Shown here: piece by piece, positions 16,109 through 34,491 of the stretch
Numbering within the stretch: the stretch's first letter is position 1
How the letters are laid out: each line of letters begins with the position of its first letter
IMG/VR virus record: IMGVR_UViG_3300042503_001656
Span: 1 to 64,000 of that record
Direction: 5' to 3' (one strand)
DNA from: an uncultured virus (IMG/VR IMGVR_UViG_3300042503_001656)
Lineage: Duplodnaviria; Heunggongvirae; Uroviricota; Caudoviricetes
DNA length: 64,000 nt
Made by a program: the position numbers and the translations under genes
The notes under the pieces: model-generated
What the model was told of the DNA's origin: nothing
What the model saw: the letters and a program-made list of their open reading frames with translations, nothing else
The model's database searches: none

Positions 16109-16281
16109 AGTCGCTTTTCCTCTCGGCTCGCTTGTTTCTCTCAACATTATCTCAACCCACCCTCAACCGACAAGTTTTTACCTGTGAGGCAAATCTTTAT
16201 CTGTGAGGCGGGGCTCACAGATAAAGAAGCACCCAGTGTCGGGGGGTGACACTGGGTGCTTACTGGAGAGAATTGCTGGGG

Positions 16282-16434
16282 CTAAACACCCTTGGCGATG
16301 AGCAGGTCTATCAAGACGACGAGACGCTGGGCGTCCATCTCGCTCTTTGTGATTCTGCCACGCTTGAGCTGGTCGTCCAACTTCTCCAACTGGAGAAGGG
16401 CTTGTTCTATTGGGGATGTCGCTGTTGTTTCCAT
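16282..16434 (-). CDS. Small leaderless protein (METTATSP..., 50 aa; not in ORF track)
   Basis: ATG 36 nt from promoter copy at 16470(-); open to TAG. Confidence 0.65.
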   Translation of the reverse strand: METTATSPIEQALLQLEKLDDQLKRGRITKSEMDAQRLVVLIDLLIAKGV

Positions 16435-16470
16435 AAGAACAGCCTAGCATCACCCACCCCAGGCCGACAA

Positions 16471-16486
16471 TGTTTCACGTGAAACA
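16471..16486. promoter_or_regulatory. parS-like palindrome (perfect consensus)
   Basis: TGTTTCACGTGAAACA between divergent promoter copies. Confidence 0.75.
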
Positions 16487-16553
16487 TTTTGCCCGACAAG
16501 AGCCCCGATGGCTAACTTGTCGGGCAAGGGTGGGTCGTGATAATGTGATGTGT

Positions 16554-16784
16554 ATGGAAACAGCGACAACACTCACCAACATTCAGATGCTCCTTATGAT
16601 TGAGCGCATAATGAACGCCTGCGAGCAACGCACGGAATGGGACGACACGACAAAGAAAGTGTTCCTCTCAATGCACACTGCGTGGCACGCGCTCGTGGAC
16701 GCAAACACGCTCTCGGTGTTCAAGGAAGAAACCCAAGCGTCCTACACGCACCCAGACAGCAACGCATTCATCACTTGGGATTAG
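16554..16784 (+). CDS. Leaderless hypothetical protein (METAT)
   Basis: Promoter copy 16517. Confidence 0.7.
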   Translation: METATTLTNIQMLLMIERIMNACEQRTEWDDTTKKVFLSMHTAWHALVDANTLSVFKEETQASYTHPDSNAFITWD

Positions 16785-16887
16785 GAGCCCAACACGAAGC
16801 ACCCACGGGTGTTTCGTGAACAAAAGCCCCGTTCCCGTGAGTTCGGCTGATTTGTCGGCTAAGGGTGGGTCGGTGTAAGGTTTGGGT

Positions 16888-17196
16888 ATGGAAACAACAG
16901 CGACAACAAAAGCAGCAATCATCGCAGAATGGTACGACAACCGTTTTGGTGCAGAAGTGTTCGGAGCACTCATCAACATTCTCCGTCTCGCAGGAGCAAC
17001 GGAGTTCACAATCCCAACTGCTTGGCTTGACTTTCAGCCCAACGGTCAGGAAGGCGAGATTGCTTTCCGCTTCGCTCACACGCTCTCTTGGGAGAACGGT
17101 GAGACAGCACCAGTCATCAAGGCTCTCCGTGAAGTAGCCCGTATCAAGTCGGTGGACTGGGACACAGACGCTCCGAGAGATTGGGACTACGACTAG
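16888..17196 (+). CDS. Leaderless hypothetical protein (METTAT)
   Basis: Promoter copy 16852. Confidence 0.7.
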   Translation: METTATTKAAIIAEWYDNRFGAEVFGALINILRLAGATEFTIPTAWLDFQPNGQEGEIAFRFAHTLSWENGETAPVIKALREVARIKSVDWDTDAPRDWDYD

Positions 17197-17239
17197 TCCC
17201 AACTTGTCGGCTAAGGGTGGGGTGAACTAAGGTATGGGT

Positions 17240-17437
17240 ATGACATCAACAGCGAAATGGATTAGCGAACTCCCAACAGTAGAGGAGTGCGACAAGGAGA
17301 TTGCTCGCCTCTCTCACTGGCTGGAAACAAAGCGATACGAGATGAGCGCACGAGAGGCAGTTGCCCTCGCTGACCGTATTCGCACTTGGGAGAAAAAGCG
17401 CATTTGGGCGAGACGCTACGGAAAGTGTGACTACTGA
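17240..17437 (+). CDS. Leaderless hypothetical protein
   Basis: Promoter copy 17204. Confidence 0.7.
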   Translation: MTSTAKWISELPTVEECDKEIARLSHWLETKRYEMSAREAVALADRIRTWEKKRIWARRYGKCDY

Positions 17438-17613
17438 TGAAGAAGTACAGCGCAACAATCTCTCTGTTCATTGACGAGTTTGAGGCAGAGGACAGGGAGA
17501 GTGCTAGGGCGATTGTCGGCAAATACATTGACCACCTCATTGACATTTGTGAGGTCAATGAGGGCGAACTCACTTGGGGTGGGGTAGACGAGTCAATAGA
17601 AGAAGAACAGTAA
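17437..17613 (+). CDS. Small acidic protein (not in ORF track)
   Basis: TGATG overlap with upstream stop; MKKYSATISLF...EEEQ. Confidence 0.6.
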   Translation: MKKYSATISLFIDEFEAEDRESARAIVGKYIDHLIDICEVNEGELTWGGVDESIEEEQ

Positions 17614-17831
17614 GAGAGACGGGGCTCTCTTACTTCTTTTTCTTTATCGTGTAGCCGTTTGCTTTGAGGTCTTTGACTATCCGTTCTGGAATGCCACCCC
17701 AAATGGGGATACCAGAAGAGGCCAGTGAGCGAGCGATAATGTCAAGCTTTTTCTTACGGTGGAGTTGTCTGAACATTCTGAAAGCATACAACGATTTGTC
17801 GGCCTGGGGTGGGGTGGGCTAAGATTTAGGT

Positions 17832-18011
17832 ATGGACAGCGACAAAGACCTGATGGAAATACTGGAACAGATAGAGAAGATTATGCGCCCACTGGCCGAG
17901 TGCTGTGGGAAAATCCCACAAGGCGTATGGTTAGAGCGCACCTACTGCGTTTACTGCGAGATGAGTGCCGAGTGGTGCCAGTGTGATGTGTCCGACTTCT
18001 GCGACTGCTAG
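17832..18011 (+). CDS. Leaderless Cys-rich protein (MDSDK..., 59 aa)
   Basis: Promoter copy 17796. Confidence 0.6.
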   Translation: MDSDKDLMEILEQIEKIMRPLAECCGKIPQGVWLERTYCVYCEMSAEWCQCDVSDFCDC

Positions 18012-18113
18012 CAATCGGCCAGACATCTGACGGCCTTGCTACGCAGGCACGAGGCCGGGGCTACGTGCCTGCGTGATTTGTCGGTCGAGGGTGGGTCGGA
18101 GTAATGTGTGTGT

Positions 18114-18431
18114 ATGGAAACAAACAGCACATACCCAACACCCGAAGCCCAAGCAGTAGCCGAAGGCACAACCGTTCACGAGAGTGGAGCAATCTCTCTC
18201 GACAACCCAGCAAGCATTGAGCACTTGCGTTTCGTGAGCGCAATCAGCGCACTCTCACTCGAAGCAAAGACGGGAATGAAAATGACCCGAGTCCCAATGA
18301 CACGCTTTTGCCGTGAGAACTACGGAACAACGAAGCGCACCCTGAAGGGTTGCTTGCGTGAGATGCTCGACCTCTACAAAGAGGTGTACGGGCGTGAGAG
18401 CGAGTTTGAGAAGTCCTACAGCCAACTGTAG
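18114..18431 (+). CDS. Leaderless hypothetical protein (METNS)
   Basis: Promoter copy 18078. Confidence 0.7.
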   Translation: METNSTYPTPEAQAVAEGTTVHESGAISLDNPASIEHLRFVSAISALSLEAKTGMKMTRVPMTRFCRENYGTTKRTLKGCLREMLDLYKEVYGRESEFEKSYSQL

Positions 18432-18533
18432 GACTCTCGACCACAGGAACGGCAGCCTGTGGTCGACAAACCCCCCTGAGCCCCGGCTATTGGGGGTTTG
18501 TCGGTTTGGGGTGGGTACTGATAAAGTGGAATC

Positions 18534-18773
18534 GTGAACAGCAAGCCAAACTCAATTTTTGACATTTTCGTAGACGGTTGCGAATGCGACAACTGCCAAG
18601 AGAAAGTGTCAAAGCCAGACCTATTCGCCAACATCATCACGGTCAATGGAAAAAGCTCCATTCAGGTGTTCAACAGCGATTACAAGCATTTAGAAGCAGT
18701 CAAGTACTCAAGTATCTTTGATGCTATGGCAGTCATCAGAGAGAACGGTCTAACGCTCCTAGCGTCCATCTGA
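18534..18773 (+). CDS. Leaderless hypothetical protein (GTG start)
   Basis: Promoter copy 18498. Confidence 0.65.
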   Translation: MNSKPNSIFDIFVDGCECDNCQEKVSKPDLFANIITVNGKSSIQVFNSDYKHLEAVKYSSIFDAMAVIRENGLTLLASI

Positions 18774-18985
18774 TGACATACAACGAGTTTCTATTCCAAT
18801 TCATCAAGAGCCTTCCCAATGACGGAGAGACACGCATTGGACAGCATTACTTCAACACGCTCAACGAAGTACGGCCAGAAATAGCCAAGAGAATAAGAGC
18901 GATGAAGATTGACCCGTTCTATTTGAACTCAGTCCCCGAAGAAACGGAAAAGGTCGTACGGGGCTTATGGGAGCAGAAGCTGTGA
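18773..18985 (+). CDS. Hypothetical protein
   Basis: TGATG coupling; RIGQHYFN...DPFY. Confidence 0.7.
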   Translation: MTYNEFLFQFIKSLPNDGETRIGQHYFNTLNEVRPEIAKRIRAMKIDPFYLNSVPEETEKVVRGLWEQKL

Positions 18986-19023
18986 ACTTGTCGGTTTGGG
19001 GTGGGGTGAACTAATCTGTGTGT

Positions 19024-19152
19024 ATGGACAGCGATTACCAAAACGAATACCAAGACCATTGCGAAGACCTCGCAAACTCTTTCCTCTGTGACACGGCAGA
19101 ACCAAAAGAACAGCCCGATTACGGAGACATTGAGAGCGATGGAGTTTTCTAA
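19024..19152 (+). CDS. Leaderless acidic microprotein (42 aa)
   Basis: Promoter copy 18988; TAATG overlap with next gene. Confidence 0.6.
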   Translation: MDSDYQNEYQDHCEDLANSFLCDTAEPKEQPDYGDIESDGVF

Positions 19153-19505
19153 TGGGAGCATTTGAGCAAGCACAAGAAGAGATGTGGAGAAACGCCGTGA
19201 GCGTTCGCATCTCACCGATTGACCTTCCCGATGAACCAATGAGCGAATGGATGTGGGATGTTGAGATTGTCGTTCCAAATAATCAGTGGGAGAACTCTGA
19301 TGAAGATGGGAACTTCACGATTGAGCAATGTGGCATTGACTCTTTTCATTCGCTTGAGTCAGCTTTTGAGTGGGCGTACAAGTGGCTCAAGGGTCGTGGC
19401 TATGATGTCTCCAACATTGAACTTTCATTGACCTCAATGGTGGGCAGTGGGATTACTCACAACAACGATTTACAAAAAGTTATGGAAGCGAGAACAAATG
19501 CTTGA
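19152..19505 (+). CDS. Acidic hypothetical protein
   Basis: Coupled ORF, 117 aa. Confidence 0.65.
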   Translation: MGAFEQAQEEMWRNAVSVRISPIDLPDEPMSEWMWDVEIVVPNNQWENSDEDGNFTIEQCGIDSFHSLESAFEWAYKWLKGRGYDVSNIELSLTSMVGSGITHNNDLQKVMEARTNA

Positions 19506-19878
19506 GGCATTGCCAAAGGAATGTAGTGAGTGCGGGGCTCACTACCCATCACACCAGCAAGAAGGTCGCTTTATTGACTACGGGTGGTCTTTCAACTACC
19601 TCACTCTCGGTCACTACGGAGGATTTACCGATTGCGTTCCCGACAGGGGAGATGATTGGGATGATGAGAAATACATTGTCCACCTTTGCCACGATTGCTG
19701 TCTGAAACTAATACGGGCATTGCCTAGTGTCTTTAGAAAAGCTCTCGGTGACTTAGGTTGTCATCCAGGCAATGTCGGACAGCCAGCGTGCTGTGAGTAT
19801 GCGTGGACAACAGACAATTCAGGCTTTCACTACAGAGGGTCGGCTGATGGCTCTTGGACTTTGGTTGGTAAGGACTGA
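19498..19878 (+). CDS. Cys-rich Zn-binding hypothetical protein
   Basis: CSEC...CHDCC. Confidence 0.65.
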   Translation: MLEALPKECSECGAHYPSHQQEGRFIDYGWSFNYLTLGHYGGFTDCVPDRGDDWDDEKYIVHLCHDCCLKLIRALPSVFRKALGDLGCHPGNVGQPACCEYAWTTDNSGFHYRGSADGSWTLVGKD

Positions 19879-19996
19879 TGTACCATTGAGTACATGAGTG
19901 AAGAGCAACAGCCAAAAGAACAGCCACAAAAAGCTGAGAAAAAAGTTACCGAGGTGAACATCACCAAGCCCCGTCCCGGGAAGCTAAGGACAACAG

Positions 19997-20218
19997 TTAT
20001 TCGGAAGGTTTGTTGCCGTCGCGGAAGATAAGCCACTGTCCGTAGCAAGAGTTGAGAACAGCGCACAAAATAAGAATTATCGCTAATACTGTCCCTACAA
20101 AGAAAGACATGTAAGCGATAACAAGACTCAATCCAATGTGAAGCAACCCCTTCATGACGGGGTCTTCAGGAATCCATCTATCAATAACTGAAATCAGCTT
20201 TTCCAATGGTTTCTCCAC
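19997..20218 (-). CDS. Small membrane protein
   Basis: Two hydrophobic segments; start uncertain. Confidence 0.5.
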   Translation of the reverse strand: MEKPLEKLISVIDRWIPEDPVMKGLLHIGLSLVIAYMSFFVGTVLAIILILCAVLNSCYGQWLIFRDGNKPSE

Positions 20219-20433
20219 TGACTAGGTGAATGACCTTCCTCAGCCTCTGCTTTATCTTCCGGAGATTCATAAAGACGAATGGCGTGGATACATGGGTCTC
20301 CACCTTCTTCCCACATTTCTTCTTCTGCTTTTGTCTGTGGCAATCCGTCATGGGTTTCGCAAAGAGGTGGTGAACACCAACCTTGTTGCATGCCATAGGT
20401 AATCCATTCGTCAAAGTTGTTTATCTCGGCCAT
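20194..20433 (-). CDS. Hypothetical protein
   Basis: GWCSPPLCETHDG...DPCIH. Confidence 0.65.
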   Translation of the reverse strand: MAEINNFDEWITYGMQQGWCSPPLCETHDGLPQTKAEEEMWEEGGDPCIHAIRLYESPEDKAEAEEGHSPSQWRNHWKS

Positions 20434-20442
20434 GTCTAATCC

Positions 20443-20649
20443 TTAGAAAAGTGTTGGGTCATTGTCTACGCCGTCTTTGACGCAGTACTCATGAATGTAT
20501 CGGAAATCTTCTGTAATTATTGAATGGACGCTTCTGCCTTTTCCCTTCAACCAAACCGTAGCTTGCCGGACGACAGTGCTCGAGTTTCTATCTAAGGGAT
20601 GGCCACACTTCTCACAATAATAAAGCGATGGCATTTTCATGGTTCGCAT
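20443..20649 (-). CDS. Small Zn-ribbon protein
   Basis: CEKC...HEYC. Confidence 0.55.
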   Translation of the reverse strand: MRTMKMPSLYYCEKCGHPLDRNSSTVVRQATVWLKGKGRSVHSIITEDFRYIHEYCVKDGVDNDPTLF

Positions 20650-20775
20650 CTTATAGGAATAGCCCCGCTATTCCTACACACAGGGAGAAGGGCGAAACTT
20701 GTCGGCTAAGGGTGGGGTCTTGCTAAACTGGCAAAGCCGAAAGGCACACAGCGAAAAACAGCGAAAGGAAAAGCA

Positions 20776-21129
20776 GTGGCACTTACAGCACAGGAACTTG
20801 CGAAGCTCCCGATTTGGGAAGCAGAAGCGTTCGGGCGTTGGCTCGCAGGCGAAGCGTTTGATGACGGTTCTGACGATTATTACGATTCTTCCGAGGGAGA
20901 ACTTTACGCCGAGTTCGTCTCATCTTGGGTTTCGGGTGGAGGTCTTTACTCTGACGCCTCTCGGGCGTGGAATTCAGGTATCGCTCACCGTAACGGTTAC
21001 GCTTCAGCTCCCGAGGGAGATTACGAGGAACGCCCTGATTGGCTTCCTCGTTACGGCACCCCTGAATGGGAAGCTTACGAGCTTGCGATGGACGCACGAG
21101 ATTACATGGAAGAAATGCGAGGTTATTAG
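20776..21129 (+). CDS. Acidic aromatic-rich hypothetical protein (leadered)
   Basis: Promoter copy 20699, AAAGGAA SD. Confidence 0.7.
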   Translation: MALTAQELAKLPIWEAEAFGRWLAGEAFDDGSDDYYDSSEGELYAEFVSSWVSGGGLYSDASRAWNSGIAHRNGYASAPEGDYEERPDWLPRYGTPEWEAYELAMDARDYMEEMRGY

Positions 21130-21130
21130 G

Positions 21131-21313
21131 ATGCGAGCGATTCACAACACACCAATTCCCGACGAGCAAGAGTTCCCTATCCCCGACGATTGCGTTTGCG
21201 ACGGTGACGAGCTTTGCGAAGCTTGTCAGCGTGTCATCGCCGACGACCTGCGTCAGCAGGAGGAAGAGGAGGCGGGGCTCCTCTTGTACTTGTCGGTTGA
21301 GGGTGGGGACTAA
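21131..21313 (+). CDS. Small acidic Cys protein ending inside a promoter repeat
   Basis: C-terminus LSVEGGD is encoded by the repeat. Confidence 0.55.
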   Translation: MRAIHNTPIPDEQEFPIPDDCVCDGDELCEACQRVIADDLRQQEEEEAGLLLYLSVEGGD

Positions 21314-21325
21314 TAAAATTAGGTC

Positions 21326-21529
21326 ATGCTGATAACGACATATTGCAAAAACGAAAAGTGCGCTGAATTTGAGAACGACTTTGACGACCAAGAAGTTGAT
21401 TTAGACGGCGATTACACACTCAAGGATTGGGTTGAGTACGAATGGGATTGCCCAGAGTGTGGAGAGACCAGCACCCACTATGAGCAAGCGAAAGACCTGC
21501 ATCATGGTTATTGGTCAGATGACTACTAA
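21326..21529 (+). CDS. Leaderless acidic Zn-ribbon protein
   Basis: Promoter copy 21290; CKNEKC...CPEC. Confidence 0.7.
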   Translation: MLITTYCKNEKCAEFENDFDDQEVDLDGDYTLKDWVEYEWDCPECGETSTHYEQAKDLHHGYWSDDY

Positions 21530-21591
21530 CCGATAGCGCAATGCTTGTTGCGCTATCTAAAGGTATAGACGGGGCTATACCTTTAGATAGA

Positions 21592-21903
21592 TTATCGCAG
21601 AGCTTCTTTTCCTTCTTCAGTGATTTCGCAAACCTGCATCGCCGAACCGGCCGAAGAAGGTCGAGTTTCACCGGTGGGAACAATCAAGCCGTTAGCACGA
21701 AGTTCTGAGCACCTCTTCCAATAGCAACACTTTGGCTTCGAAGCAAGTCCAGTGGCTATGCCAGCTTCCTCATCAGTTAGACCACCGTGTAAATATTCAG
21801 CAAGTAACAGCATCGCTTGTGAGCGTTTACGAGGCTTGACATCTTCAGCACCCATCGCCGAAGTGGCCGGGTCTGCACTACGAAACATTGGTAAGTCGTT
21901 CAT
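21592..21903 (-). CDS. Winged-HTH phage protein
   Basis: R..DP.TS...GLTDEE...WKRCSELRANGLIVPTG. Confidence 0.7.
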   Translation of the reverse strand: MNDLPMFRSADPATSAMGAEDVKPRKRSQAMLLLAEYLHGGLTDEEAGIATGLASKPKCCYWKRCSELRANGLIVPTGETRPSSAGSAMQVCEITEEGKEALR

Positions 21904-22170
21904 AAGTTTCCTTCATCTATTTGTTTTCAAGTCTAAACATTATGCCAAGCGTTTGAACATCTGTCAATCTCACCACTACGGGAGCCCCGCCCCCGTAGTG
22001 GTGAGATTTGTCGGCTAGGGGTGGGTCGTGATAAGTTATTTACAGACAAGGAAGTAAGCCAAGTCGGTGGGGAAGCCTAGAAAGCACCACATTGTTGAAG
22101 CCGAGAGGTGGAGATGTGAATGACGGTGTAGCCCACATAAAAACCACCCAACAACAGCGAAAGAGAAAAA

Positions 22171-22287
22171 ATGGGATACGACTACGATTACGACTGGGAC
22201 GACCGAGACGAACTCGCAGGTCATCACGCCGCAGGCGCAGCCGAGGCACGAGCTGAGGACGAGCTGGACTGGGAAGAGGAGGAATAA
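22171..22287 (+). CDS. Very acidic microprotein (MGYDYDYDWDD...EEEE, 38 aa)
   Basis: Follows a ~130-nt leader from promoter copy 22008. Confidence 0.55.
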   Translation: MGYDYDYDWDDRDELAGHHAAGAAEARAEDELDWEEEE

Positions 22288-22406
22288 CCAGTCCCCTACG
22301 GGCGTAGCCCCGGCTTACCCCGTAGGGGTGATTTGTCGGCTAGGGGTTGTCTTTGCGAGAATGCAGGAGTGAACTCCATTGGGGGGTTCAGGAAGGAACA
22401 GCGATT

Positions 22407-22670
22407 ATGTGTCAATGTGAAGACCGACCCTGTTGTGGTCACCCAGCAGAGGAACTTGCTGATGCTCGTTATTGGGCAGAGCGTGAGTATTACGGCGATG
22501 ATTATGACCGTGATTACGACGAATACGACGGAAGCGACGAACGCTGTGAGGGCTGTGGGGGAACATTTGATGACCCTGAAGACGACGAAGCGTGTCTCTG
22601 TCGTGGCACCGATGGCTCTTGGGGGCGTGAAGATTCTGCTCTTGAGTCGTCGCTTTTTGGAGATTGCTAG
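22407..22670 (+). CDS. Acidic Cys-rich protein (MCQCEDRPCCGH)
   Basis: Promoter copy 22333, AAGGAA SD. Confidence 0.65.
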   Translation: MCQCEDRPCCGHPAEELADARYWAEREYYGDDYDRDYDEYDGSDERCEGCGGTFDDPEDDEACLCRGTDGSWGREDSALESSLFGDC

Positions 22671-22884
22671 ATAACCTCTAGGTAGTTGTAGGGGGTGGGT
22701 GTCCTGGATATTTGCCCACCCCCTAACAACCTCTCACCATTTGCGGTGGGGCGATGCGGTCTTTGGGGCAACCACATAGTCAAGACCCTAACAGCAGCGG
22801 GGCTGCTGTAGTGAAAGAATCAGAGCTGATAAATAATTCTGATTAGTTCTGACATTGTTTGACGCAAGGTCACTTCTATTAGGT

Positions 22885-23184
22885 ATGACAGCACTTATCC
22901 CTTCACCATCTGCTTACCATTCCAAGTCCCCTGATGAGTGGACACCACGAGACCTCTTTGAGCGTGAGGTGGATTGGTATTGTCAAGGCCATAGCCGTGT
23001 TCGCTACCGTTCTAAGGAGTGGATTGAGTTCACAGAACGCTTTGTACCGTACTGCGAAGATTGGAACGGCTGTTGGGTTGCTGAGGAAGCGTGGCGTGAG
23101 TTCACGCTTTATCTAACGCTCCCTGAGGGCGAGTATTACCCCGATGAATACCCTGAGGGGTGGCACTTCAGACGAGGCTATTAG
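22885..23184 (+). CDS. Trp/Tyr-rich hypothetical protein
   Basis: Open frame, ATG 22885. Confidence 0.6.
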   Translation: MTALIPSPSAYHSKSPDEWTPRDLFEREVDWYCQGHSRVRYRSKEWIEFTERFVPYCEDWNGCWVAEEAWREFTLYLTLPEGEYYPDEYPEGWHFRRGY

Positions 23185-23599
23185 AGTCTGAATCTACCCA
23201 CACATACGGAAGGTCGTCAGGTACGCCTTCCCAAATGCCACCGTAGAACTCAGGTGCTTTACGAATGAGATTACTTCTATGGGAATCAACAATGTCCATA
23301 CGACCCCACCATTCAGGAAGGTCTGTTTCATCGGGCTTTACTAACTCAACAATTTTGTCCATTGTTGTGTCTTTGTAGCCTCTTGACTTCCACTCAAGAC
23401 ACATAGCAACTCCGTAGGCAGATAGCCCCGGCAAGTTGTCTGCCCACATACGAGAAGCTGGGTGATTCCTCCAACCGTTTGTCATTCCTAGATTCGCACG
23501 AAGAATCTGAAATGTCTCGACCCGTTGCTTTCCTAGTCTCCGATAGTCGAGAACCTTTGCGATACTTTGGAAATCTAATTCGGGAACAAATACTTGCAT
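23168..23599 (-). CDS. Pyrimidine-dimer DNA glycosylase superfamily protein (MSMEG_6728-like)
   Basis: MQVF.P...LD..RLGKQRVE..QI...GW.NHPA..MW...SHRSNL.RK.P. Confidence 0.8.
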   Translation of the reverse strand: MQVFVPELDFQSIAKVLDYRRLGKQRVETFQILRANLGMTNGWRNHPASRMWADNLPGLSAYGVAMCLEWKSRGYKDTTMDKIVELVKPDETDLPEWWGRMDIVDSHRSNLIRKAPEFYGGIWEGVPDDLPYVWVDSDSNSLV

Positions 23600-23946: not shown

Positions 23947-23948
23947 AA

Positions 23949-26994: not shown

Positions 26995-27000
26995 CAAAAA

Positions 27001-27196: not shown

Positions 27197-27409
27197 ATGG
27201 CAACAGCGAAAACAAAAAAACTCAAAGTTCAAGATGTAGTTGGCAACGAAGTGCGTTTGCACTCTCAGCTGTGGATACAGGGATACTGTGACGGTATCTG
27301 CACTGGCTACGACAGCAAGCGTGGAGTGTTCTTCTTCCGTCGTCATGGCCAGCAACTTGATGAGGGTACTTACGAAGTACGCAACATCTCACAGTTTGAA
27401 TTGCTGTAA
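27197..27409 (+). CDS. Leaderless hypothetical protein (MATAK)
   Basis: Promoter copy 27161; GGGAACC-GAAA-GGTTCCC hairpin follows. Confidence 0.7.
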   Translation: MATAKTKKLKVQDVVGNEVRLHSQLWIQGYCDGICTGYDSKRGVFFFRRHGQQLDEGTYEVRNISQFELL

Positions 27410-27510
27410 GGGAATGAGGGAACCGAAAGGTTCCCTTTACCCGTATTGAGCCCCGGTATTGGCTGCATCGATTGCGCAGCAGAAATCACTGCGGCACAAA
27501 AGTACTGCTG

Positions 27511-27711
27511 CTAGTCTTCCGGCAAATCGTCGTATTCGTCGAGCCTGGAGATAAGGTCAGCTTTCTCTTCTTCGGTCATCGACAGTGCAGCTTCGCTTGG
27601 CCGGTACACCCACTCCCCATCTTCTCTCATTGCTACATCGAGCAGCCCGGCTTTCACCATCAGGTATAAGTCGCGGGCCAGGTCATCAGTTGTGTATTCG
27701 CTATTTGCCAT
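27511..27711 (-). CDS. Small wHTH-like protein, paralog of 9291-9575
   Basis: Shared motif GL..V...DGEW.Y...MTEEE. Confidence 0.65.
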   Translation of the reverse strand: MANSEYTTDDLARDLYLMVKAGLLDVAMREDGEWVYRPSEAALSMTEEEKADLISRLDEYDDLPED

Positions 27712-27798
27712 CCAGGCAGCATAGACCGGATGGCAGCAAAAACACGGGGCTCAAAACAGATTTGTCGGTTAGGGGTGGGGGGTAGTAAGGTGGTTCTT

Positions 27799-28005
27799 GT
27801 GAGGGAGACCCACCGCCTCTCCTCCGATACAACCGAATCGCACCAGTCCCTCCGCAGGATAAGGCTCTGGACAGCAAGCCTCTGATGGGCGTACGACCAT
27901 CAAGCATCCGCCACAGTCCACCCGTCCTCCCTCTCGCGCGATAACTGCTCTAGGCTCGGGGGTGCTAGCCCCAGTATCGGAGGTGGGGCGGGGGGTCTTT
28001 TTCTT
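27799..28005 (+). ncRNA. Candidate ~205-nt structured sRNA (copy 1)
   Basis: Promoter copy 27762; 27801-27830 pairs with 27974-28003 (30 bp, 2 mismatches); U-rich 3' end; CCTCC motifs; GGATAAGGCTCT shared with copy 2. Confidence 0.75.
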
Positions 28006-28074
28006 TGTGCCAAAAGCGGGGCTTGGCACAAAGAAAGTTTGTCGGTCGTGGGTGGCCTGTTCTAAGATTGTCTT

Positions 28075-28377
28075 ATGAAAACAACAGCGAACAACGAAAC
28101 AAGGGCAGCAATGAACGCTGCGTATCTAAACCCATTCGTCACGACATTGACTCTTGACGAAGTGCCGCACAAACGCAAATACACAAAAGAGCTGCGGGCT
28201 GGAGATTTCGTGGCCGTGTTTGTCAGCACCTCTCAGAAAGTTTGGGAAGGCTATTTTTCTTGGAAAGAAATCCGGACGATTGCTGCGACCCCCCAGGCCT
28301 ATGTCCTGAAGTTCACAGACGGAACAGACGAACGACACCCAAAGTTCTCAGCAGGTAAATGGGAAGTGATGAAATAA
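28075..28377 (+). CDS. Leaderless hypothetical protein (MKTTA)
   Basis: Promoter copy 28039. Confidence 0.7.
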   Translation: MKTTANNETRAAMNAAYLNPFVTTLTLDEVPHKRKYTKELRAGDFVAVFVSTSQKVWEGYFSWKEIRTIAATPQAYVLKFTDGTDERHPKFSAGKWEVMK

Positions 28378-28495
28378 CCCGCCGGAAATTCCGGCAGCCG
28401 CACGCACGAGTGGCTAGCCCCGCTAGCCACTAATACGTGAGTGCTCCTCTTTCGTAAATTGTCGGTTAGGGGTGGGTGGGTGTAATGTTGGAGAC

Positions 28496-28792
28496 ATGAA
28501 CACAACAGCAACAACACACACACAGTCAGCCCAACTAATTGACGATGCAACCCGTGAGGGTCGCCTCTATCACTTCAACGGTGGGCAGGCATACATCAAA
28601 GCAAGTGAGGACGATGTTCTCCTAATCATTGACATGACACAGGAAACACCCGACTTCACTTACCACTATGGTGAGTTTGCCTCTAACTACTTCCGTAACA
28701 ACCACCCACAGCCCACAGACAGGGAACCACTTGTTCCGTTCTACGCAGAAGTGGACAAAAGAAAATTGTCGGTTCAGGGTGGGAAGAACTAA
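28496..28792 (+). CDS. Leaderless hypothetical protein ending in the next promoter repeat
   Basis: Promoter copy 28459; C-terminus LSVQGGKN. Confidence 0.7.
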   Translation: MNTTATTHTQSAQLIDDATREGRLYHFNGGQAYIKASEDDVLLIIDMTQETPDFTYHYGEFASNYFRNNHPQPTDREPLVPFYAEVDKRKLSVQGGKN

Positions 28793-28801
28793 GATAGAGA
28801 C

Positions 28802-28984
28802 ATGGAAACAGCACAAGCATTCATCATCGTCACTTGGTTCTTGGTCAAGTGTGCAGGACTCGCAATCTTTGCAGTCGGCGCATACACCACTATCCAATGG
28901 ATTAGGAAAAATGTCTCATTCTTCACTTACGAAGATGTAGACCCATCAGAAGACCCCGACTGGGTTCGGGAAAACTACGGATAA
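28802..28984 (+). CDS. Leaderless small membrane protein (METAQ)
   Basis: Promoter copy 28766; hydrophobic N-half. Confidence 0.7.
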   Translation: METAQAFIIVTWFLVKCAGLAIFAVGAYTTIQWIRKNVSFFTYEDVDPSEDPDWVRENYG

Positions 28985-29109
28985 CAATCCGTAGACAGCG
29001 ACAGCGAGAAAGTTCTTGCTCCCAGTTTGTCGCTGTACTGGTTGAGCAGAAAGAGAAAGAGTCACTTTCGGGTGGCTCTTTCTCTATGTGGAGCCCCGGT
29101 TCTCCGGAC

Positions 29110-29313
29110 AAAAAGAAAGAGCCCCAGCAATAAAGCTGAAGCTCTTCTCTCCTTGTGACTCACCATTAGAGCTCTCAAGGAAGAGCTTATGTCTGGTCGT
29201 GAGCCAATCCAGCAAGGGGGACTTCCTTACCCGATAGTTGGTATCTGCCGATGTCCCTAACCCAATCGAGCTAAGTACGGTTTCGTTCCTCAACAGCAGT
29301 GTCCCTGACTGAT
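29110..29313 (-). ncRNA. Candidate minus-strand ~200-nt transcript without a credible ORF
   Basis: TTGACA-N17-TAATGT at 29348-29320(-); terminator hairpin plus U-tract ending near 29110. Confidence 0.4.
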
Positions 29314-29432
29314 AGGTAAACATTACCAGCATTTCTCCAGCTTGTCAACTCAAATAGTCACGGCCTCAATCTAGGCAACGGGGCTCATTTCCCGATTTGT
29401 CGGGTCAGGGGGGGTGGTGATAAATTGGTCTT

Positions 29433-29641
29433 GTGAGCGAGGCTCTTCGCCTCTCCCACACACAACATAAGTGCATAGTCTCCCTTCTGGATAAGGCTCT
29501 TGTCACTGCGATAGTCCCTCCACTCTCCGGAAGTGCGATACTCCCTCCAGTCAGACAATCCGTCCTCCTCTGAATAGACCTCTCCTTATGGGGGTGACGA
29601 CCTCGTGTGTGGGTGGGGCGAAGGGGCTCGCTCTTTCTTTT
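29433..29641 (+). ncRNA. Candidate ~205-nt structured sRNA (copy 2)
   Basis: Promoter copy 29397; 29435-29463 pairs with 29605-29633; U-tract; repeated TGC(G)ATA(G/C)TC(C/T)C units. Confidence 0.75.
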
Positions 29642-29674
29642 ACATAGGGGCAAGCCCCGTCTTGCCCCTATGTA

Positions 29675-29690
29675 TATTTCACGTGAAACA
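29675..29690. promoter_or_regulatory. parS-like site (15/16)
   Basis: TATTTCACGTGAAACA. Confidence 0.6.
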
Positions 29691-29732
29691 TTGGACTTGT
29701 CGGTCAGGGGTGGGTGCGACTAAGGTGGGGGT

Positions 29733-30035
29733 ATGGAAACAGCAACAACATTGGAAACATCAGTCGGCAACCAACTCCCAAAGGGAAACGGCTCATTCTC
29801 GGTCACTACGATTGTCAATGGACTGATTATCACGCCAAGCAACTCATCAGCGATTAGTCAAATCAACTACCTCGCTGATGACAGCGTTCTTGTCGTGACA
29901 TACAGCAACGGTGGTATGTACCACTACAAAGAAGTCCCAGCAACGGTGGTATTCCACTTATTGGTTGCCGAGAGTTTTGGAAAGTTCATCAACGCACACA
30001 TCAAGCCACACTACGAGTTTCGCAAAATCTGGTAA
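29733..30035 (+). CDS. KTSC-domain protein (copy 1), leaderless
   Basis: SSAISQINY...LVVTYSNGGMYHYKEVP...LLVAESFGKFINAHIK. Confidence 0.85.
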   Translation: METATTLETSVGNQLPKGNGSFSVTTIVNGLIITPSNSSAISQINYLADDSVLVVTYSNGGMYHYKEVPATVVFHLLVAESFGKFINAHIKPHYEFRKIW

Positions 30036-30051
30036 CAAGTCCCCCCAATAG

Positions 30052-30092
30052 ATAGCCCCACCTGATACCCCGTCAGGTGGGGCTATCGCTTT
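30052..30092 (+). terminator. Intrinsic terminator of KTSC copy 1
   Basis: GATAGCCCCACCTGA...TCAGGTGGGGCTATC-GCTTT; homolog with compensatory changes at 30881-30925. Confidence 0.75.
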
Positions 30093-30163
30093 ATTACGGG
30101 GAAGCCCCGTTTCCCCGTAATAAAGATTTGTCGGTCAGGGGTGGGCCGCGATACAGTGGAGAC

Positions 30164-30379
30164 ATGAGCAGCGACACAACATACACAGAACAGCAGTACG
30201 GAACCATTGAGGAAGTTTGCATAGAACACGCCGTGTTTGGTTTCATTGAGGAGTACGGCCTGGTGGAGTCAGACTTCATCAAATGGGCTTCCGACAACGG
30301 CGTGAGCTATGAGGACTTACTGGACAACATGTACGACCACATCGACGACTTTGTGAAGGACTTGTCCACTTCTCGATAA
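30164..30379 (+). CDS. Leaderless acidic protein (MSSDT)
   Basis: Promoter copy 30128. Confidence 0.7.
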   Translation: MSSDTTYTEQQYGTIEEVCIEHAVFGFIEEYGLVESDFIKWASDNGVSYEDLLDNMYDHIDDFVKDLSTSR

Positions 30380-30506
30380 GGCCGCCAGCCCTGACCGATT
30401 CCTCCTGGTCGGTCAGGGCTTTATTCTCTCCTGAGCCCCGATTGTCCTGGTAAGAGAGTTCCATAACGAGACTGTACGAACGTACGTACGGGGCTCCCGT
30501 AGGGAG

Positions 30507-30522
30507 TGTTTCCCGTGAAACA
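30507..30522. promoter_or_regulatory. parS-like site (15/16)
   Basis: TGTTTCCCGTGAAACA. Confidence 0.6.
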
Positions 30523-30564
30523 TTGGATTTGTCGGTTAGGGGTGGGTTGTAATAAAGTGGGGGT

Positions 30565-30861
30565 ATGGAAACAGCAACAACATTAGAAACATCACTCGGC
30601 AACCAACTTCCTTCGGGCAACGGTACTTTCACTGTCCTTGACAGTGGAAACCTCATCATCAGACCAACCTCATCAGCAATCAGCAAAGTCAATTACCTCA
30701 TTGACTCGCAAGTACTTGTTGTGAAATACAACGGCAGTGAGACCAAATACTTCTATCGGAATGTTCCCGTAGCAGTGGCGTTCCACCTGCTAATCGCTGA
30801 CAGTTTCGGCAAGTTCATCAACGCTCACATCAAGCCCAACTACGAGTTCTGGACAAGTTAG
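30565..30861 (+). CDS. KTSC-domain protein (copy 2), leaderless
   Basis: SSAISKVNY...YFYRNVP...ADSFGKFINAHIK. Confidence 0.85.
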   Translation: METATTLETSLGNQLPSGNGTFTVLDSGNLIIRPTSSAISKVNYLIDSQVLVVKYNGSETKYFYRNVPVAVAFHLLIADSFGKFINAHIKPNYEFWTS

Positions 30862-30998
30862 CCCCACCAGTCCCCCAACAGATAGCCCTACCCGATACTC
30901 CTAGTCGGGTAGGGCTATCGCTTTTCCCATAGGGAAGCCCCGCTGCCCCTATGGGAGTGGACTTGTCGGCTTGGGGTGGGTGCTGCTAAATTGGAGTT

Positions 30999-31271
30999 AT
31001 GGAAACAAACAGCGAAATCAGCACCGCCCACCTTCCCCACTTCTGTGGTGAAACTTGTATGTTGGAAGCCGAGCAAGTTGGCTACTTCACGGGTGACGAT
31101 TGGGTAAATACCGAGCAAGAGTTCACCCACGAGAATCCCCATTGCGATTGGTGTGGCGAGTCTGATGATGACGGTGATGAAGATTCAGCGTGGGCAGACG
31201 CAGACGCATTACGCTCTATCGGTTGGGGTGATGACGAGGATTATGGATACTGTGGTGGTGACGACTACTAA
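30999..31271 (+). CDS. Leaderless acidic protein, paralog of 13052-13285
   Basis: METNSE start; WADADALRSIGWGDDEDY. Confidence 0.75.
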   Translation: METNSEISTAHLPHFCGETCMLEAEQVGYFTGDDWVNTEQEFTHENPHCDWCGESDDDGDEDSAWADADALRSIGWGDDEDYGYCGGDDY

Positions 31272-31419
31272 GTAACAGGGGAAGGTTAGCCTTCCCCTTA
31301 TTCTCTGCCTGAGTCCCGTTTGCTGCTGTGACTAAGTCTCTTTACAGAACTGTACGAACATACGTACGGGGCTCCGGATGAACTTGTCGGCCTGGGGTTG
31401 GCCCTGGTAGTGTCTGGGT

Positions 31420-31596
31420 ATGGAAAAAACAGTGACTATCCCGTACGCGCTACTACTCGAACTCTATGAGTCCCAGGTGTACGATGCGTACTACAACCCC
31501 CAGACAATCTACGGCCCTGGGCGACCAGAAGCCCTGGAGTTCATTGCCAAGATGAATGAGTTCGTGGCCGAGCAAGACCAATACGAAGAAGAGTAA
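31420..31596 (+). CDS. Leaderless small protein (MEKTVT..., 58 aa)
   Basis: Promoter copy 31384. Confidence 0.6.
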   Translation: MEKTVTIPYALLLELYESQVYDAYYNPQTIYGPGRPEALEFIAKMNEFVAEQDQYEEE

Positions 31597-31708
31597 CCAA
31601 AGCCCTGGCCTAGCAGCTGGGGCTTTATCTCTATTGGAGCCCCGTCTCCAATAGAGATACCCCCGACAAGATTTGTCGGGCAGGGGTGGGTCGGTCTAAG
31701 ATGGAGGC

Positions 31709-32017
31709 ATGACATCAACAGCGATTCAGTATCAAACAGCACAACACGACCTTCCAATGCCAAAGGGCAACGGAACATTTATTGTCTTTGCAGACGGAAC
31801 CCTAATGGGTCACCCCGAATCATCGGCAGTAGCAGAATGGAACTACCTTGTCCACACGGCAACGCTTGTAGTGGAATACAAGGGAAGCCCCAAGCAATAC
31901 TTCTACGAAGAAGTACCTTCCTACAAGGTCTTCCAAATGCTCGCCAGCGAAAGCATTGGGGCTTTCATCGCCAAGGCAATCAAGCCACACCATCAAGTGT
32001 GGTCGCCCGAGCGCTAA
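31709..32017 (+). CDS. KTSC-domain protein (copy 3), leaderless
   Basis: SSAVAEWNY...YFYEEVP...ASESIGAFIAKAIK. Confidence 0.8.
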   Translation: MTSTAIQYQTAQHDLPMPKGNGTFIVFADGTLMGHPESSAVAEWNYLVHTATLVVEYKGSPKQYFYEEVPSYKVFQMLASESIGAFIAKAIKPHHQVWSPER

Positions 32018-32193
32018 TCCCAACAGTTCCCCCCAAGAACGGAGAGCCCACCCACCCCCATTTGGGTGGGCTTCTCTGCTTGTGAGCCCCGTTGCAGCCA
32101 GGGAGACCGCTGCACCCCCGGACACGAAGCAGCAGCTGCGGGGCTATAAATCACGATTTGTCGGGCAGGGGTGGGGGTTGCTAAGGTGGAGGT

Positions 32194-32502
32194 ATGACAA
32201 CAGCGAAGAGCACGCAGAATGTTTCACGTGAAACATTTGAGCGAATCAGTGAAGCGGCCGAAGAATTGCGTAAAGCACTCAAGGCCTTGAACCCAGAGAC
32301 AGGGCAACTGCCCTCCTACAGCAATCCTCACCCACGAGGATGGACATCGTCTTGGGATGTCGCCCGACCTTGGGATGACACGACAATCTCCAATGCAGTC
32401 CACTACGCATTCGCCCTCATCCTTGACGAGGGCTGGGAAGACGAGATGGCCGAGAAGCAGGCCGAACTTGACGAGTTCAACAAGGAAGACGAGGAGGGAT
32501 GA
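32194..32502 (+). CDS. Leaderless hypothetical protein (contains parS-like site)
   Basis: Promoter copy 32158. Confidence 0.7.
   Translation: MTTAKSTQNVSRETFERISEAAEELRKALKALNPETGQLPSYSNPHPRGWTSSWDVARPWDDTTISNAVHYAFALILDEGWEDEMAEKQAELDEFNKEDEEG
32220..32235. promoter_or_regulatory. parS-like palindrome (perfect consensus)
   Basis: TGTTTCACGTGAAACA inside a CDS. Confidence 0.7.
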
Positions 32503-32786
32503 TGGACTTCATTCAGGAACCGAAACTGATGACCAGAGTCAAGAAGGAGAAGACCAAGGAGAAGACCAAGTACAAGGTCAGAGGATGGGTCGAGGACTTG
32601 ATGGAGAACCCGAACCGATGGGCAATCTATTCACGCCGACCGCTAGACCGACAGGGCATGGTCATGGCCTACAGTTCAATGGATGGATACAGGAAGCGTT
32701 ACCCACACATTGAATGGGCAATCTCAAAAGAAGATGACGCTTACGCAGTGTGCGGCCGATACACACCACCGACCGAGGAAGGGTAA
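32499..32786 (+). CDS. Hypothetical protein
   Basis: ATGA overlap; GGAGG SD. Confidence 0.65.
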   Translation: MMDFIQEPKLMTRVKKEKTKEKTKYKVRGWVEDLMENPNRWAIYSRRPLDRQGMVMAYSSMDGYRKRYPHIEWAISKEDDAYAVCGRYTPPTEEG

Positions 32787-32892
32787 TCAGGGGAGCGGGG
32801 CTTACCTGATTACCGGCAGCTGAAAACTTGTCGGTCAGGGGTTGTTTCAACTAAGGTTTATTTATGAAAACATTTGCTGAGAGGGCAGAGAA

Positions 32893-33321
32893 ATGATGAG
32901 AACGCCAGAACTGATTGCACAAGACCATCTTCAATGGTGCGTGGACAACCAAGACGACTGTTTCTTCAAGCCAGAAGCAGAGTTGTACGGTGTCACAGAT
33001 AAAGAGCAGTTTGTAAAGATTGCATCTGCAAAAGATGTCTATGCCCTGCTGGAAATCACTTACTCACTTCCACACAACAAGTACATCGCTCTCGCTATCC
33101 ATGTGACAGGGTTAGCGTCTCCCTTTGATGAAGATGACCCAACTCCACCATCAGAGAGAGAGGACAGCAGGCGAGTCTCTCTCGTCACTATCACCACAGA
33201 AGAGGGCATGGGGTCAGCACTAGCCTTTTCAGATACAGAAGAGATAATCACAGATGAAGGTGAAGCGTCTGGGGGTCTAGCAGAAGCCCTGCTCGATTGT
33301 TGGTTCAGGTCAGCATCATGA
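32893..33321 (+). CDS. Hypothetical protein, paralog of 35699-36172
   Basis: PSE...RRV.L...TDEG.A.G.LAEA. Confidence 0.75.
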   Translation: MMRTPELIAQDHLQWCVDNQDDCFFKPEAELYGVTDKEQFVKIASAKDVYALLEITYSLPHNKYIALAIHVTGLASPFDEDDPTPPSEREDSRRVSLVTITTEEGMGSALAFSDTEEIITDEGEASGGLAEALLDCWFRSAS

Positions 33322-33452
33322 AAAACCTGATGCTCTTCATAGTCACCGTCAGCTCGCTGGCGACCATCTTCTACATCACGCAACTCATCACTCGCCTTTT
33401 CTAACACCTGAGCCCCGCGTGCCTTGTTGGGCAACGGGGCTGCCCAGATAGA

Positions 33453-33515
33453 TAGTTGCGCCCACAACTATCTAGTTGCGCACTCAACTAATAAAGATAG
33501 TTGCGCCCACAACTA
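33453..33515. repeat. Three operator-like palindromes TAGTTG-N6-CAACTA
   Basis: Copies at 33453, 33473, 33498. Confidence 0.8.
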
Positions 33516-33620
33516 ATAAATTCCGTTTGTCGGGGAAACGACCAGAGTGTCCGTACTTCATGACGGTGGTGGATGAGTCTGAATTTGTCGGTTAGGGGTG
33601 GGTGCTACTAAGTTGGTGGC

Positions 33621-34067
33621 ATGACGAAAGCACTTTTCATCCCAGCGACAGGCGAACCACGCACCATCATTCTCCCAAAGGAGAACGCACATAAGACAAT
33701 CCACGAACTAATCGGTGGATGGTTTGACTGTGTGTCCCTATCTGACGAAGTTGTCATGTATGTCCATGACGAAGGTCTGCTCATCGGGCTTGACCCCAAT
33801 GTCACTGCCAGCACCCTGTACGGCAACCCCATCGCTGGCGATGTTCTCTTGGTCGGCACACTCAACGCACAAGGCGAGCGTGACGGTTACGACTACGACT
33901 TGCCCGAGTTCATGTTTGAGCCAACCTTTGTGGCACGAGTGAACGAAGTGAACAGCAACCCGATTCACCGAGAAATAATCTCTCTCTACATGGCACAGAT
34001 GGACTTGACTCCACGCATTACAACCCTGACAGATGACGAGTTCAACGAGTGGTTGGGGGCTAAGTGA
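33621..34067 (+). CDS. DUF3846-like protein, leaderless
   Basis: LIGGWFDCV...MYVHDEGLLIGL.PN..AS...IAGDVLLVG. Confidence 0.75.
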   Translation: MTKALFIPATGEPRTIILPKENAHKTIHELIGGWFDCVSLSDEVVMYVHDEGLLIGLDPNVTASTLYGNPIAGDVLLVGTLNAQGERDGYDYDLPEFMFEPTFVARVNEVNSNPIHREIISLYMAQMDLTPRITTLTDDEFNEWLGAK

Positions 34068-34411
34068 TGTTTGACGAAGAACCAATCGCACAACTTGAAC
34101 GAGAGTTCACCAAACTTGAATTGTCGGTCATCATTGAAGCACTAATCAACTATCGCAGTGGTGGTGTAAGACCTGACTTTGACTCAGTAGACCCTGAGAC
34201 AGTCACTATGGAGAACATTGACAGAATTGAAATTCCTGTCAAAGAGATGACCGAAGAAGATGAAGAAACAATCACAGAAATGATGATGTTGTTCATCGCT
34301 GGATTTACTCAGGTTCTCAGCGCAGAAGCTGAGATGATGGAAGAAGCAGTCACCAAAGGCACAAAGACGCTCATGGGTGAAATTACGGAATTCCTGAAAG
34401 AGCAGAAGTAA
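34064..34411 (+). CDS. Acidic hypothetical protein
   Basis: Coupled ORF. Confidence 0.65.
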   Translation: MMFDEEPIAQLEREFTKLELSVIIEALINYRSGGVRPDFDSVDPETVTMENIDRIEIPVKEMTEEDEETITEMMMLFIAGFTQVLSAEAEMMEEAVTKGTKTLMGEITEFLKEQK

Positions 34412-34491
34412 TCCCCCGGCTAGATACAGGGGGCGGGGCTCCCTGTATCTAGATTTGTCGGTCAAGGGTGGGTAGAAATAAGATGGAGAAC

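Follow-up and report, generated by a model that had tools for sequence, protein, structure and literature searches.

A seven-base motif confined to one domain of an uncultured phage genome and placed at hairpin apices in a single lineage

We describe a seven-base motif, CGGGGCT (AGCCCCG on the other strand), in the first 64 kb of an uncultured virus genome (IMG/VR record IMGVR_UViG_3300042503_001656, hereafter G000). The record is 118 kb long and 74% complete, and its first 64,000 nucleotides are referred to below as the window. The motif is confined to one domain of the genome, is conserved between relatives, follows a recurrent geometry around promoters and terminators and, in one lineage, stands at the apex of hairpins. 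Comparison of these sequences supports a DNA-level protein site at the motif. The reading that we favour, at a little under even probability, is a duplex-DNA operator that would fence and shut off early gene cassettes in a stoperator-like manner, overlaid on hairpins at the gene junctions.

The gene set of G000 (tail sheath, portal, terminase, two WhiB, a Rad52-like annealing protein, a RuvC-like protein and endonuclease VII) marks it as an uncultured lake myophage. The host is likely actinobacterial, given the WhiB genes and the leaderless promoters described below; WhiB has been used as a marker of freshwater actinophages (PMC10914622). Helicase matches in genome bins were spread over unrelated taxa, and among GenBank phages we found no close isolate of the phage family. 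The comparison set comprised the complete strain G001 (~98.5% identical to G000) and the relatives G002, G003, G006 and G007, with G006 being ~70–75% identical to G000. The motif-poor relatives G004, G010, G173 and G174 are fragments.

The observation of motif-apex hairpins (Table 1) is confirmed. An apex was called when an inverted repeat (IR) with a score of at least 8 was centred on the motif, and 30 flank swaps served as the null. Between 15.4 and 40 kb, 27 of the 50 CGGGGCT/AGCCCCG sites were at an IR apex, compared with 0–2 in the nulls; a preliminary description of the window had counted at least 20 such repeats, and this holds. The five hairpins that it quoted are all present, four at the start it gave and one at 25530 rather than ~25529. 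A perfect stem of at least 8 bp was found at 23 motif sites in this interval, which contains 53 perfect IRs of that length in total; the 50–64 kb run, proposed as a comparison, contains only 3. Over 50–118 kb there are 23 perfect IRs of at least 8 bp, none with the motif at its apex, while for perfect IRs of at least 12 bp in 15.4–40 kb the motif is at the apex in 11/15. As had been described, the stems are unrelated (over the 10 nt that follow the motif, hairpins are 29% identical to one another, near random) and the motif faces either way (31 + and 29 − of 60 copies). The statement that all hairpins are capped by the motif was too strong, as 30 of the 53 perfect IRs of at least 8 bp lack it at the apex. 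Likewise, what is constant at the apex is the 7-mer and not the loop, which ranges from 3 to 14 nt and in which the CT of the motif is usually paired. Many intergenic motif sites in G000 have no hairpin.

The motif is distributed unevenly along the genome. All 60 copies of CGGGGCT in G000 fall within 3.1–46.9 kb, with 0 in the remaining 71 kb, and the hexamer CGGGGC is absent from the 74 kb outside the domain, where ~11.5 copies would be expected (sum of four 7-mers). G002 has a block of CGGGGCT together with a second form, CGGGACT, and 0 copies of either outside it (expected 9.3 and 7.1). The family-wide site is CGGGRCT, 7 bp long and with no conserved flank. Our family survey covered 50 SNF2-helicase-anchored loci of at least 8 kb, many of them near-duplicates. 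At least five motif copies were present in 45 of these loci, and at least three apex hairpins only in those of G001 and G006; the other 48 loci had 3 of their 794 motifs at an apex. The motif was at a hairpin apex in 0/56 cases in G002 and 0/39 in G003, and a search for further members of the hairpin lineage (G000, G001 and G006) found none. In other lineages the motif occurs as inverted pairs with a spacing of 24–25 or 31–34 bp. Folding of such a pair would pair the two motif copies into a duplex site, whereas folding of an apex hairpin in G000 would open the site. The motif, being family-wide, appears to predate the hairpin, which is confined to one lineage; and because most of the family has the motif unstructured or in duplex-folding pairs, the common form of the site is probably linear duplex DNA. 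The idea that an apex site arose when an inverted pair collapsed was rejected, as the outer flanks of pairs were barely more complementary than swapped ones. Forward and reverse counts are near equal in many relatives (13/14, 14/14, 18/19 and 29/27, among G002, G003, G007, G008, G009 and G163–G170), and in G002 and G003 the orientations alternate (z 2.9 and 2.8). The heptamer was not found in print, as a whole word or by description, in the open-licence literature (supplements excluded).

Comparison of strains and orthologues points to selection on the motif. Between G000 and G001 there were 0 substitutions in 343 motif nt (4.9 expected) and 2 in 507 stem nt (7.2 expected), forming one compensated pair; the stem figure is inflated, the stems having been picked as perfect in G000. 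In G006, 22 of 31 alignable G000 sites had a motif within 45 nt of the projected place (chance 14%), and in-gene sites were kept at 14033 (helicase gene) and 46902. Orientation was the same at 20 of the 22 orthologous sites, both exceptions lying across rearranged junctions, and hairpin status agreed at 21 of the 22 (6 hairpins in both, 15 in neither), with the stems rewritten. A DNA-level protein site is supported because the motif is purged elsewhere, conserved at orthologous sites including those in genes, and phased to the −35 box (see below). The preliminary description had inferred a DNA-level signal read as a cruciform or as single-stranded DNA (ssDNA). Its DNA-level part stands, as a duplex protein site, for these reasons and for the balance of wobble pairs given below; the cruciform or ssDNA part and the suggested recombination role are not supported, as relatives keep the motif without a hairpin or as pairs that fold in the opposite way, orientation is inherited and no recombinase was found in the five records searched (see below), although the arms may have a cruciform role.

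Next, we consider the geometry of the motif around promoters and terminators. Each gene of a small-gene array at 16.5–43 kb lies behind a copy of TTGTCG-N18-TANNNY. The start codon is 5–7 nt after the −10 box in 37/43 array promoters, and the array genes are predicted from this layout to be leaderless. A motif is found within 75 bp upstream in 32 of 44 array promoters, never nearer than 16 bp, and the distance from motif to −35 box is 13–46 bp, in both orientations. Forward-facing motifs of G000 and G006 cluster at 14, 24–25 and 34–35 bp from the −35 box, that is, near −50, −61 and −71. Forward sites kept a 10.5-bp helical phase relative to the −35 box (n = 32, R = 0.44, p = 0.002; p = 0.012 against a jitter null); the sites entering this statistic are not independent, and they were split post hoc. 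Phasing was seen in unstructured forward sites (n = 16, R = 0.68) and was not significant in backward-facing sites (n = 25, p = 0.19). The phased positions match class I sites near −61.5 and −71.5, on the polymerase's face of the helix (PMC4132738). Behind terminators, a backward-facing AGYCCCG lies at 13–14 nt in 5 of 7 motif-free cases in G000, one of them in the CGGGACT form; where this spacing holds, the cassette is bracketed by two sites with their GCT ends facing it. A T-tract precedes 13/25 backward vs 2/24 forward sites in G000 (p = 0.0015). By a gapped score, pre-promoter orientation was 14:3 at unstructured sites and 17:22 in hairpins, with a Fisher p of 0.008 that had been computed on 16:22, one count short, but this contrast depends on definition (16:9 vs 16:16 by the perfect-stem rule) and was set aside. 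Terminator arms at 30051–30087, 30387–30420 and 30881–30919 resemble the promoter spacer, as if derived from promoter copies.

We propose that a monomeric phage protein, for which a protein with an HA domain and a helix-turn-helix (HA-HTH) is a candidate, would bind the asymmetric CGGGRCT site in duplex DNA, first fencing the early transcription units and then shutting them off. Sites near −50, −61 and −71 would put the binder on the polymerase's face of the helix, while sites 13–14 nt behind terminators and within genes would stall elongating polymerase. Late genes would have been cleared of the site, since it would block them. The arms would constitute a second, overlaid signal: an RNA hairpin of the PeSL (promoter-early stem-loop) type, found upstream of phage promoters, that pauses or terminates read-through as long as the site is unoccupied. 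The motif would lie in the loop because nowhere else is it free of pairing constraint; placed in the stem instead, it would give the inverted pairs of the sister lineages.

For the arms, a PeSL-type RNA insulator is modestly favoured. Several motif hairpins lie at stop codons, and 15 of 37 (G000 and G006 together) have a U-rich tail, defined by four or more T among the 8 nt that follow the last G-C pair, compared with a background of 10%; the lack of U-tracts noted in the preliminary description therefore describes the majority but is no rule. PeSL of the T4-type phages RB49/phi1, PST and nt-1 are described as stem-loops directly upstream of a repeated host-type promoter, before small ORFans in a hypervariable region where cassettes are swapped between close strains (PMC2839356, PMC4122927), and G000 is alike in these respects. 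As described there, PeSL stems hold a consensus (GGG..CCC) and loops vary, whereas the stems of G000 are unrelated and the centre is invariant; PeSL have a Shine-Dalgarno sequence between promoter and start, where G000 appears leaderless; and the central word of G000 also occurs without a hairpin and inside genes. PeSL are further characterised by effective termination at the stem-loop and by mini-circles formed when neighbouring elements recombine. They belong to T4-type phages; G000 is recognised as a myophage, which need not be T4-like.

Several observations weigh against this reading of an operator overlaid on an insulator. Apart from the non-independence of the phased sites, forward sites embedded in hairpins were not phased (n = 16, R = 0.23, p = 0.43). 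Strong post-terminator spacing is limited to G000 (1/6 in G006 and 0/13 in G002, G003 and G007), the T-tract contrast fails in G006 (2/16 vs 3/25), and, unlike stoperators, motifs inside long open reading frames face either way equally often (34 same, 35 opposite). A class I arrangement would suit an activator as well as a repressor, and the HA-HTH protein is no more than a candidate, by conservation, location and fold. As for the insulator, 22 of the 37 motif hairpins have no U-rich tail, and the mycobacterial polymerase is reported not to terminate without a U-tract (PMC3993855). Internal wobbles are divided 7 sense to 8 antisense, with no preference for the transcribed strand, in contrast to the array's own structured RNA at 27.8 kb, which uses sense-strand G.U pairs. 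Lastly, about ten motif hairpins, read by eye, follow a separate terminator-like hairpin; the preliminary description had noted that many follow a true terminator.

The proposed operator resembles the stoperators of Cluster A phages, described for the repressors of L5 and TipsytheTRex (PMC9283540), in consisting of dozens of short asymmetric sites at promoters and gene junctions; the G000 site would suit a monomeric two-domain binder, and the HA-HTH candidate is a small two-domain protein. Stoperators, in that account, are 13 bp long, oriented with transcription, spread genome-wide and maintain lysogeny (PMC9283540); they are recognised by a repressor combining an HTH with a Stoperator domain and, once bound, halt elongation. 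The G000 site, in contrast, is 7 bp long, lies in both orientations, occurs in the early third only and is purged elsewhere, and no integrase was found. The stoperator orientation rule does not extend to G000, where a bias appears only in local contexts. The candidate has an HA fold and a generic HTH, with no match to the Stoperator domain among the matches listed.

The gene of the putative binder HA-HTH is present in G001, G002, G003, G006, G007 and 4/5 further records. The protein has 384 homologues, and its recognition helix is invariant in a 48-sequence alignment. Its structural model (pLDDT 86) matches the HA structure 2kta (Z 6.8, rmsd 4.7, 74 aligned) and, with middling Z, generic HTH proteins; there was no Foldseek match at E ≤ 0.001, and a phmmer search of the PDB gave nothing relevant. 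A small ribbon-helix-helix protein (49863–50030), a MarR-like protein (53603–54058) and the WhiB proteins are alternative candidates on an equal footing. The gene lies in a stretch of ~7.5 kb over which contig depth, which is no copy number, is about doubled in all lake runs, and which is likely a direct terminal repeat. This stretch holds AAA ATPase, HA-HTH and ribbon-helix-helix genes. If the terminal repeat is true, the motif domain would occupy one terminal third of the DNA in the virion, with the HA-HTH gene inside the repeat.

If the motif instead served activation, a protein of the phage or its virion would use class I contact to recruit host polymerase to the early promoters, and the hairpins would be ordinary insulators. 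This would account for the presence of the motif upstream of most array promoters, at no less than 16 bp, and for the phasing at about −50, −61 and −71. It would also account for the site at 20661 and its G006 orthologue, where the motif is 7 nt before a −10-like hexamer without a consensus −35. A leftward leaderless gene at 20640–20680 has this hexamer, and the spacing is the same in G006. The likeness to the class I sites of CRP, whose centres near −61 and −71 lie on the polymerase's face of the helix (PMC4132738), is limited by the G000 site being an asymmetric 7-mer that is also found behind terminators and in genes. We consider an activator unlikely: the promoters already share a strong common −35/−10 pattern, G002 and G003 have no shared promoter word behind the motif, and activation needs neither the conserved in-gene and post-terminator sites nor the purge from late genes.

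Slightly less probable, and also unlikely, is a cruciform or ssDNA signal, in which the arms extrude and a protein reads or cuts the motif in its loop, or in which extrusion under supercoiling turns the site off. The stems are near-perfect Watson-Crick with no sense-strand wobble bias, orientation and phasing seem relaxed in hairpins, some hairpins lie between divergent promoters, and genes for endonuclease VII and RuvC-like proteins are present. A G.T trend to the motif strand is weak (11:4, not significant); strand-specific folding, suggested by a loose wobble count of 25:8, shrank to this ratio under strict rules and was rejected. DNA folding energies favoured the motif strand at 23:16, no consistent advantage. 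Moreover, most of the family has the motif unstructured or in opposite-folding pairs, loop length and register vary over 3–14 nt, and the hairpin centres are 75% G+C, a composition that disfavours cruciform extrusion.

The attC, REP/RAYT and N4 hairpin-promoter systems, to which the preliminary description had likened the hairpins, share with G000 variable or short stems and few invariant bases; in most of the G000 family, unlike in these systems, the motif has no hairpin. The attC site has conserved boxes at the stem base and a variable terminal loop, whereas in G000 conservation is at the apex, the stems are 29% alike and no tyrosine recombinase was found in five records. REP/RAYT and IS200/IS605 elements differ in their Y1 HUH enzyme (PF01797), found in 0/5 records. 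N4 hairpin promoters have a fixed short loop and a fixed distance and orientation to the start site, while G000 loops are 3–14 nt long, face both ways and lie 13–46 bp from the −35 box. Searches of the two giant polyproteins of the head region (3864 and 3490 aa) with Pfam, PHROGs, PDB phmmer and Atlas matched no virion RNA polymerase of the N4 type (a system described in PMC5512222), although long stretches are unannotated and a remote one could escape.

Quasi-palindrome correction is a known mutation type, and the hairpins might be its footprint: template switching at a protein-bound site would perfect and then maintain the palindrome, which would have little function of its own. Arm changes are concerted, including the compensated pair between the 98.5%-identical strains, and the right arm frequently reflects the U-tract of the terminator that precedes it. 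However, other lineages with the same site are almost without such palindromes, many intergenic sites in G000 are unstructured, and hairpin status is site-specific across lineages. We regard this explanation as improbable. A shade less probable again is a combined scheme in which the family brackets early units with inward-facing sites, so that a phage protein holds host RNA polymerase on the short genes for repeated rounds and later closes these genes, and in which the palindromes of the G000 lineage extrude under transcription-driven supercoiling and release the protein. Its motivation is a report that polymerase still sliding along the DNA after termination can be halted by a protein roadblock (PMC11364550).

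It is quite improbable that the motif serves DNA entry or end protection as a Chi-like or translocase-loading signal, whether its reader were a host enzyme or a helicase delivered by the virion. The domain fills the genome third adjoining the likely terminal repeat, the orientations alternate in G002 and G003, and the head polyprotein carries a UvrD-like helicase and ArdC. Chi sites, however, are over-represented and polar in the host chromosome, while the motif has no strand polarity (31:29) and its phasing to promoters would be left unexplained. In 151 genomes of a candidate host phylum there was no clear excess over the reversed motif, a weak control that shares CGGGGC; the phylum is that of G011, linked as host through one possibly mis-binned contig, and the tally includes seven unpublished genomes (G012, G029, G059, G079, G099, G131 and G157). 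A second motif, YACGGGT, is polar (17 + vs 2 − at 3–17 kb in G000, positions 3300–16810 of the window; 19 vs 3 in G006), with the same polarity in G007, and is, being polar, a better candidate for a Chi- or KOPS-like signal than the heptamer.

The weakest explanation, in which cassettes are shuffled at the motif as an attC- or REP-like core for site-specific recombination or crossover, is very improbable, as orientation is inherited at 20/22 orthologous sites, a clean cassette swap between G000 and G001 replaces both arms and rejoins at the promoter, and no integrase, resolvase or Y1 transposase was found (PF00589, PF01797 and PF00239 in 0/5 records: G000, G001, G002, G006 and G007, three of them complete; the PF00589 control recovered 14/14, and the search covered the phage records). 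For it speak cassettes that differ between strains, PeSL crossovers that once mapped to a loop (PMC2839356), and site 30489, which shares its left flank with site 31367 (18 nt) and its right flank with the arm of 25545 (11 nt); this site is a possible crossover at the motif, and its chimeric flanks fit occasional microhomology use. Loop flipping had no support: no strand-change joint was among the 15 listed of 34 joints in four contig runs, contigs being apt to drop rare variants.

Table 1. Positions of the motif domain, the motif-apex hairpins and associated features in the window
Feature	Position	Strand	Remarks
Domain with all 60 CGGGGCT copies	3128..46908	.	50 within 15.4–40 kb; 0 in 47–118 kb
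Motif-apex hairpin, 14 bp	16194..16227	+	motif 13 nt past minus-strand terminator, upstream of minus-strand promoter 16173
Imperfect motif-apex hairpin	16489..16527	-	between divergent promoters; −35 box inside right arm
Motif-apex hairpin, 10 bp	17609..17634	+	gene end, with U-tract
Motif-apex hairpin, 11 bp	18041..18074	+	−35 box 3 nt further on
Imperfect motif-apex hairpin	18464..18503	-	overlaps −35
Motif-apex hairpin, 8 bp	19523..19545	+	
Motif-apex hairpin, 10 bp	20654..20676	-	between divergent genes; compensated stem changes in G006 orthologue
Motif-apex hairpin, 8 bp	21264..21285	+	−35 box 4 nt further on
Motif-apex hairpin, 16 bp	21553..21590	+	between convergent genes
Motif-apex hairpin, 17 bp	21966..22008	-	abuts −35 at 22008
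Motif-apex hairpin, one bulge	22293..22328	-	directly after stop codon
Motif-apex hairpin, 8 bp	22791..22809	+	G006 orthologue has a different 11-bp stem
Motif-apex hairpin, 13 bp	24347..24378	-	at stop codon, U-rich tail
Motif-apex hairpin, 9 bp	24980..25000	-	compensated pair 24985/24995 in strain G001
Motif-apex hairpin, 14 bp	25530..25563	+	
Motif-apex hairpin, 11 bp	26081..26110	+	overlaps −35
Motif-apex hairpin, 10 bp	26706..26732	+	
Motif-apex hairpin, 17 bp	27124..27160	-	abuts −35
Motif-apex hairpin, 14 bp	28000..28036	+	after structured non-coding RNA; arms co-vary in G006
Motif-apex hairpin, 10-bp core	28401..28439	-	
Imperfect motif-apex hairpin	29074..29123	-	after terminator-like hairpin
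Motif-apex hairpin, 14 bp	29641..29674	-	
Motif-apex hairpin, 15 bp	30089..30125	-	left arm is U-tract of terminator at 30051
Motif-apex hairpin, 10 bp	30925..30956	-	after terminator at 30881
Motif-apex hairpin, 14 bp	31626..31659	-	motif starts 14 nt past terminator stem
Motif-apex hairpin	32782..32814	+	at stop codon, without U-tract
Motif-apex hairpin, 12 bp	34420..34452	+	2 nt before −35
Promoter array, 43–44 copies of TTGTCG-N18-TANNNY	16517..43075	+	
Unstructured motif, flanks chimeric	30489..30495	+	
HA-domain + HTH protein, 128 aa	46079..46462	-	conserved across family; candidate binder
Stretch of about doubled contig depth	43145..50650	.	4/4 runs

Other features were observed in the array and in related genomes. 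At 27790–28005 and 29425–29645 in the window lie two structured non-coding RNAs (~205 nt) that are promoter-driven and contain CCTCC-type stretches; one is 89% conserved in G006, and neither had an Rfam match at the gathering score. Palindromes resembling host-type parS occur inside the early array at 16472, 30508 and 32221 (with a near match at 29677) and also in G001, G002, G003 and G006, and DnaA-box-like words are present in G003 and L159. Neighbouring cassettes at 29733–32017 of the window carry three KTSC-domain paralogues. Of two giant head-region polyproteins, L003:7297–18888 combines a prohead protease with UvrD/FBH1-like helicase, ArdC-N and MPTase domains, and L058:9034–19503 has a DEDDh exonuclease and an alarmone-synthetase-like domain behind a conserved unannotated region of 1230 aa. 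At L002:14265–17141, two ParB-like genes flank a PAPS-reductase gene, a set conserved in G002, G007 and G010 and possibly a DNA-modification module.

In conclusion, the analysis separates two overlaid signals and proposes, for a large uncultured phage family, an operator that is short and invariant and for which a candidate binder is named. The authors who described PeSL asked whether these stem-loops are protein targets (PMC2839356). With a defined site, a rule for its spacing and naturally occurring variants of the stem, that question becomes testable in vitro. If fencing or shut-off by the site is true, it would be a lytic-phage counterpart of stoperators, marking one domain of the genome.

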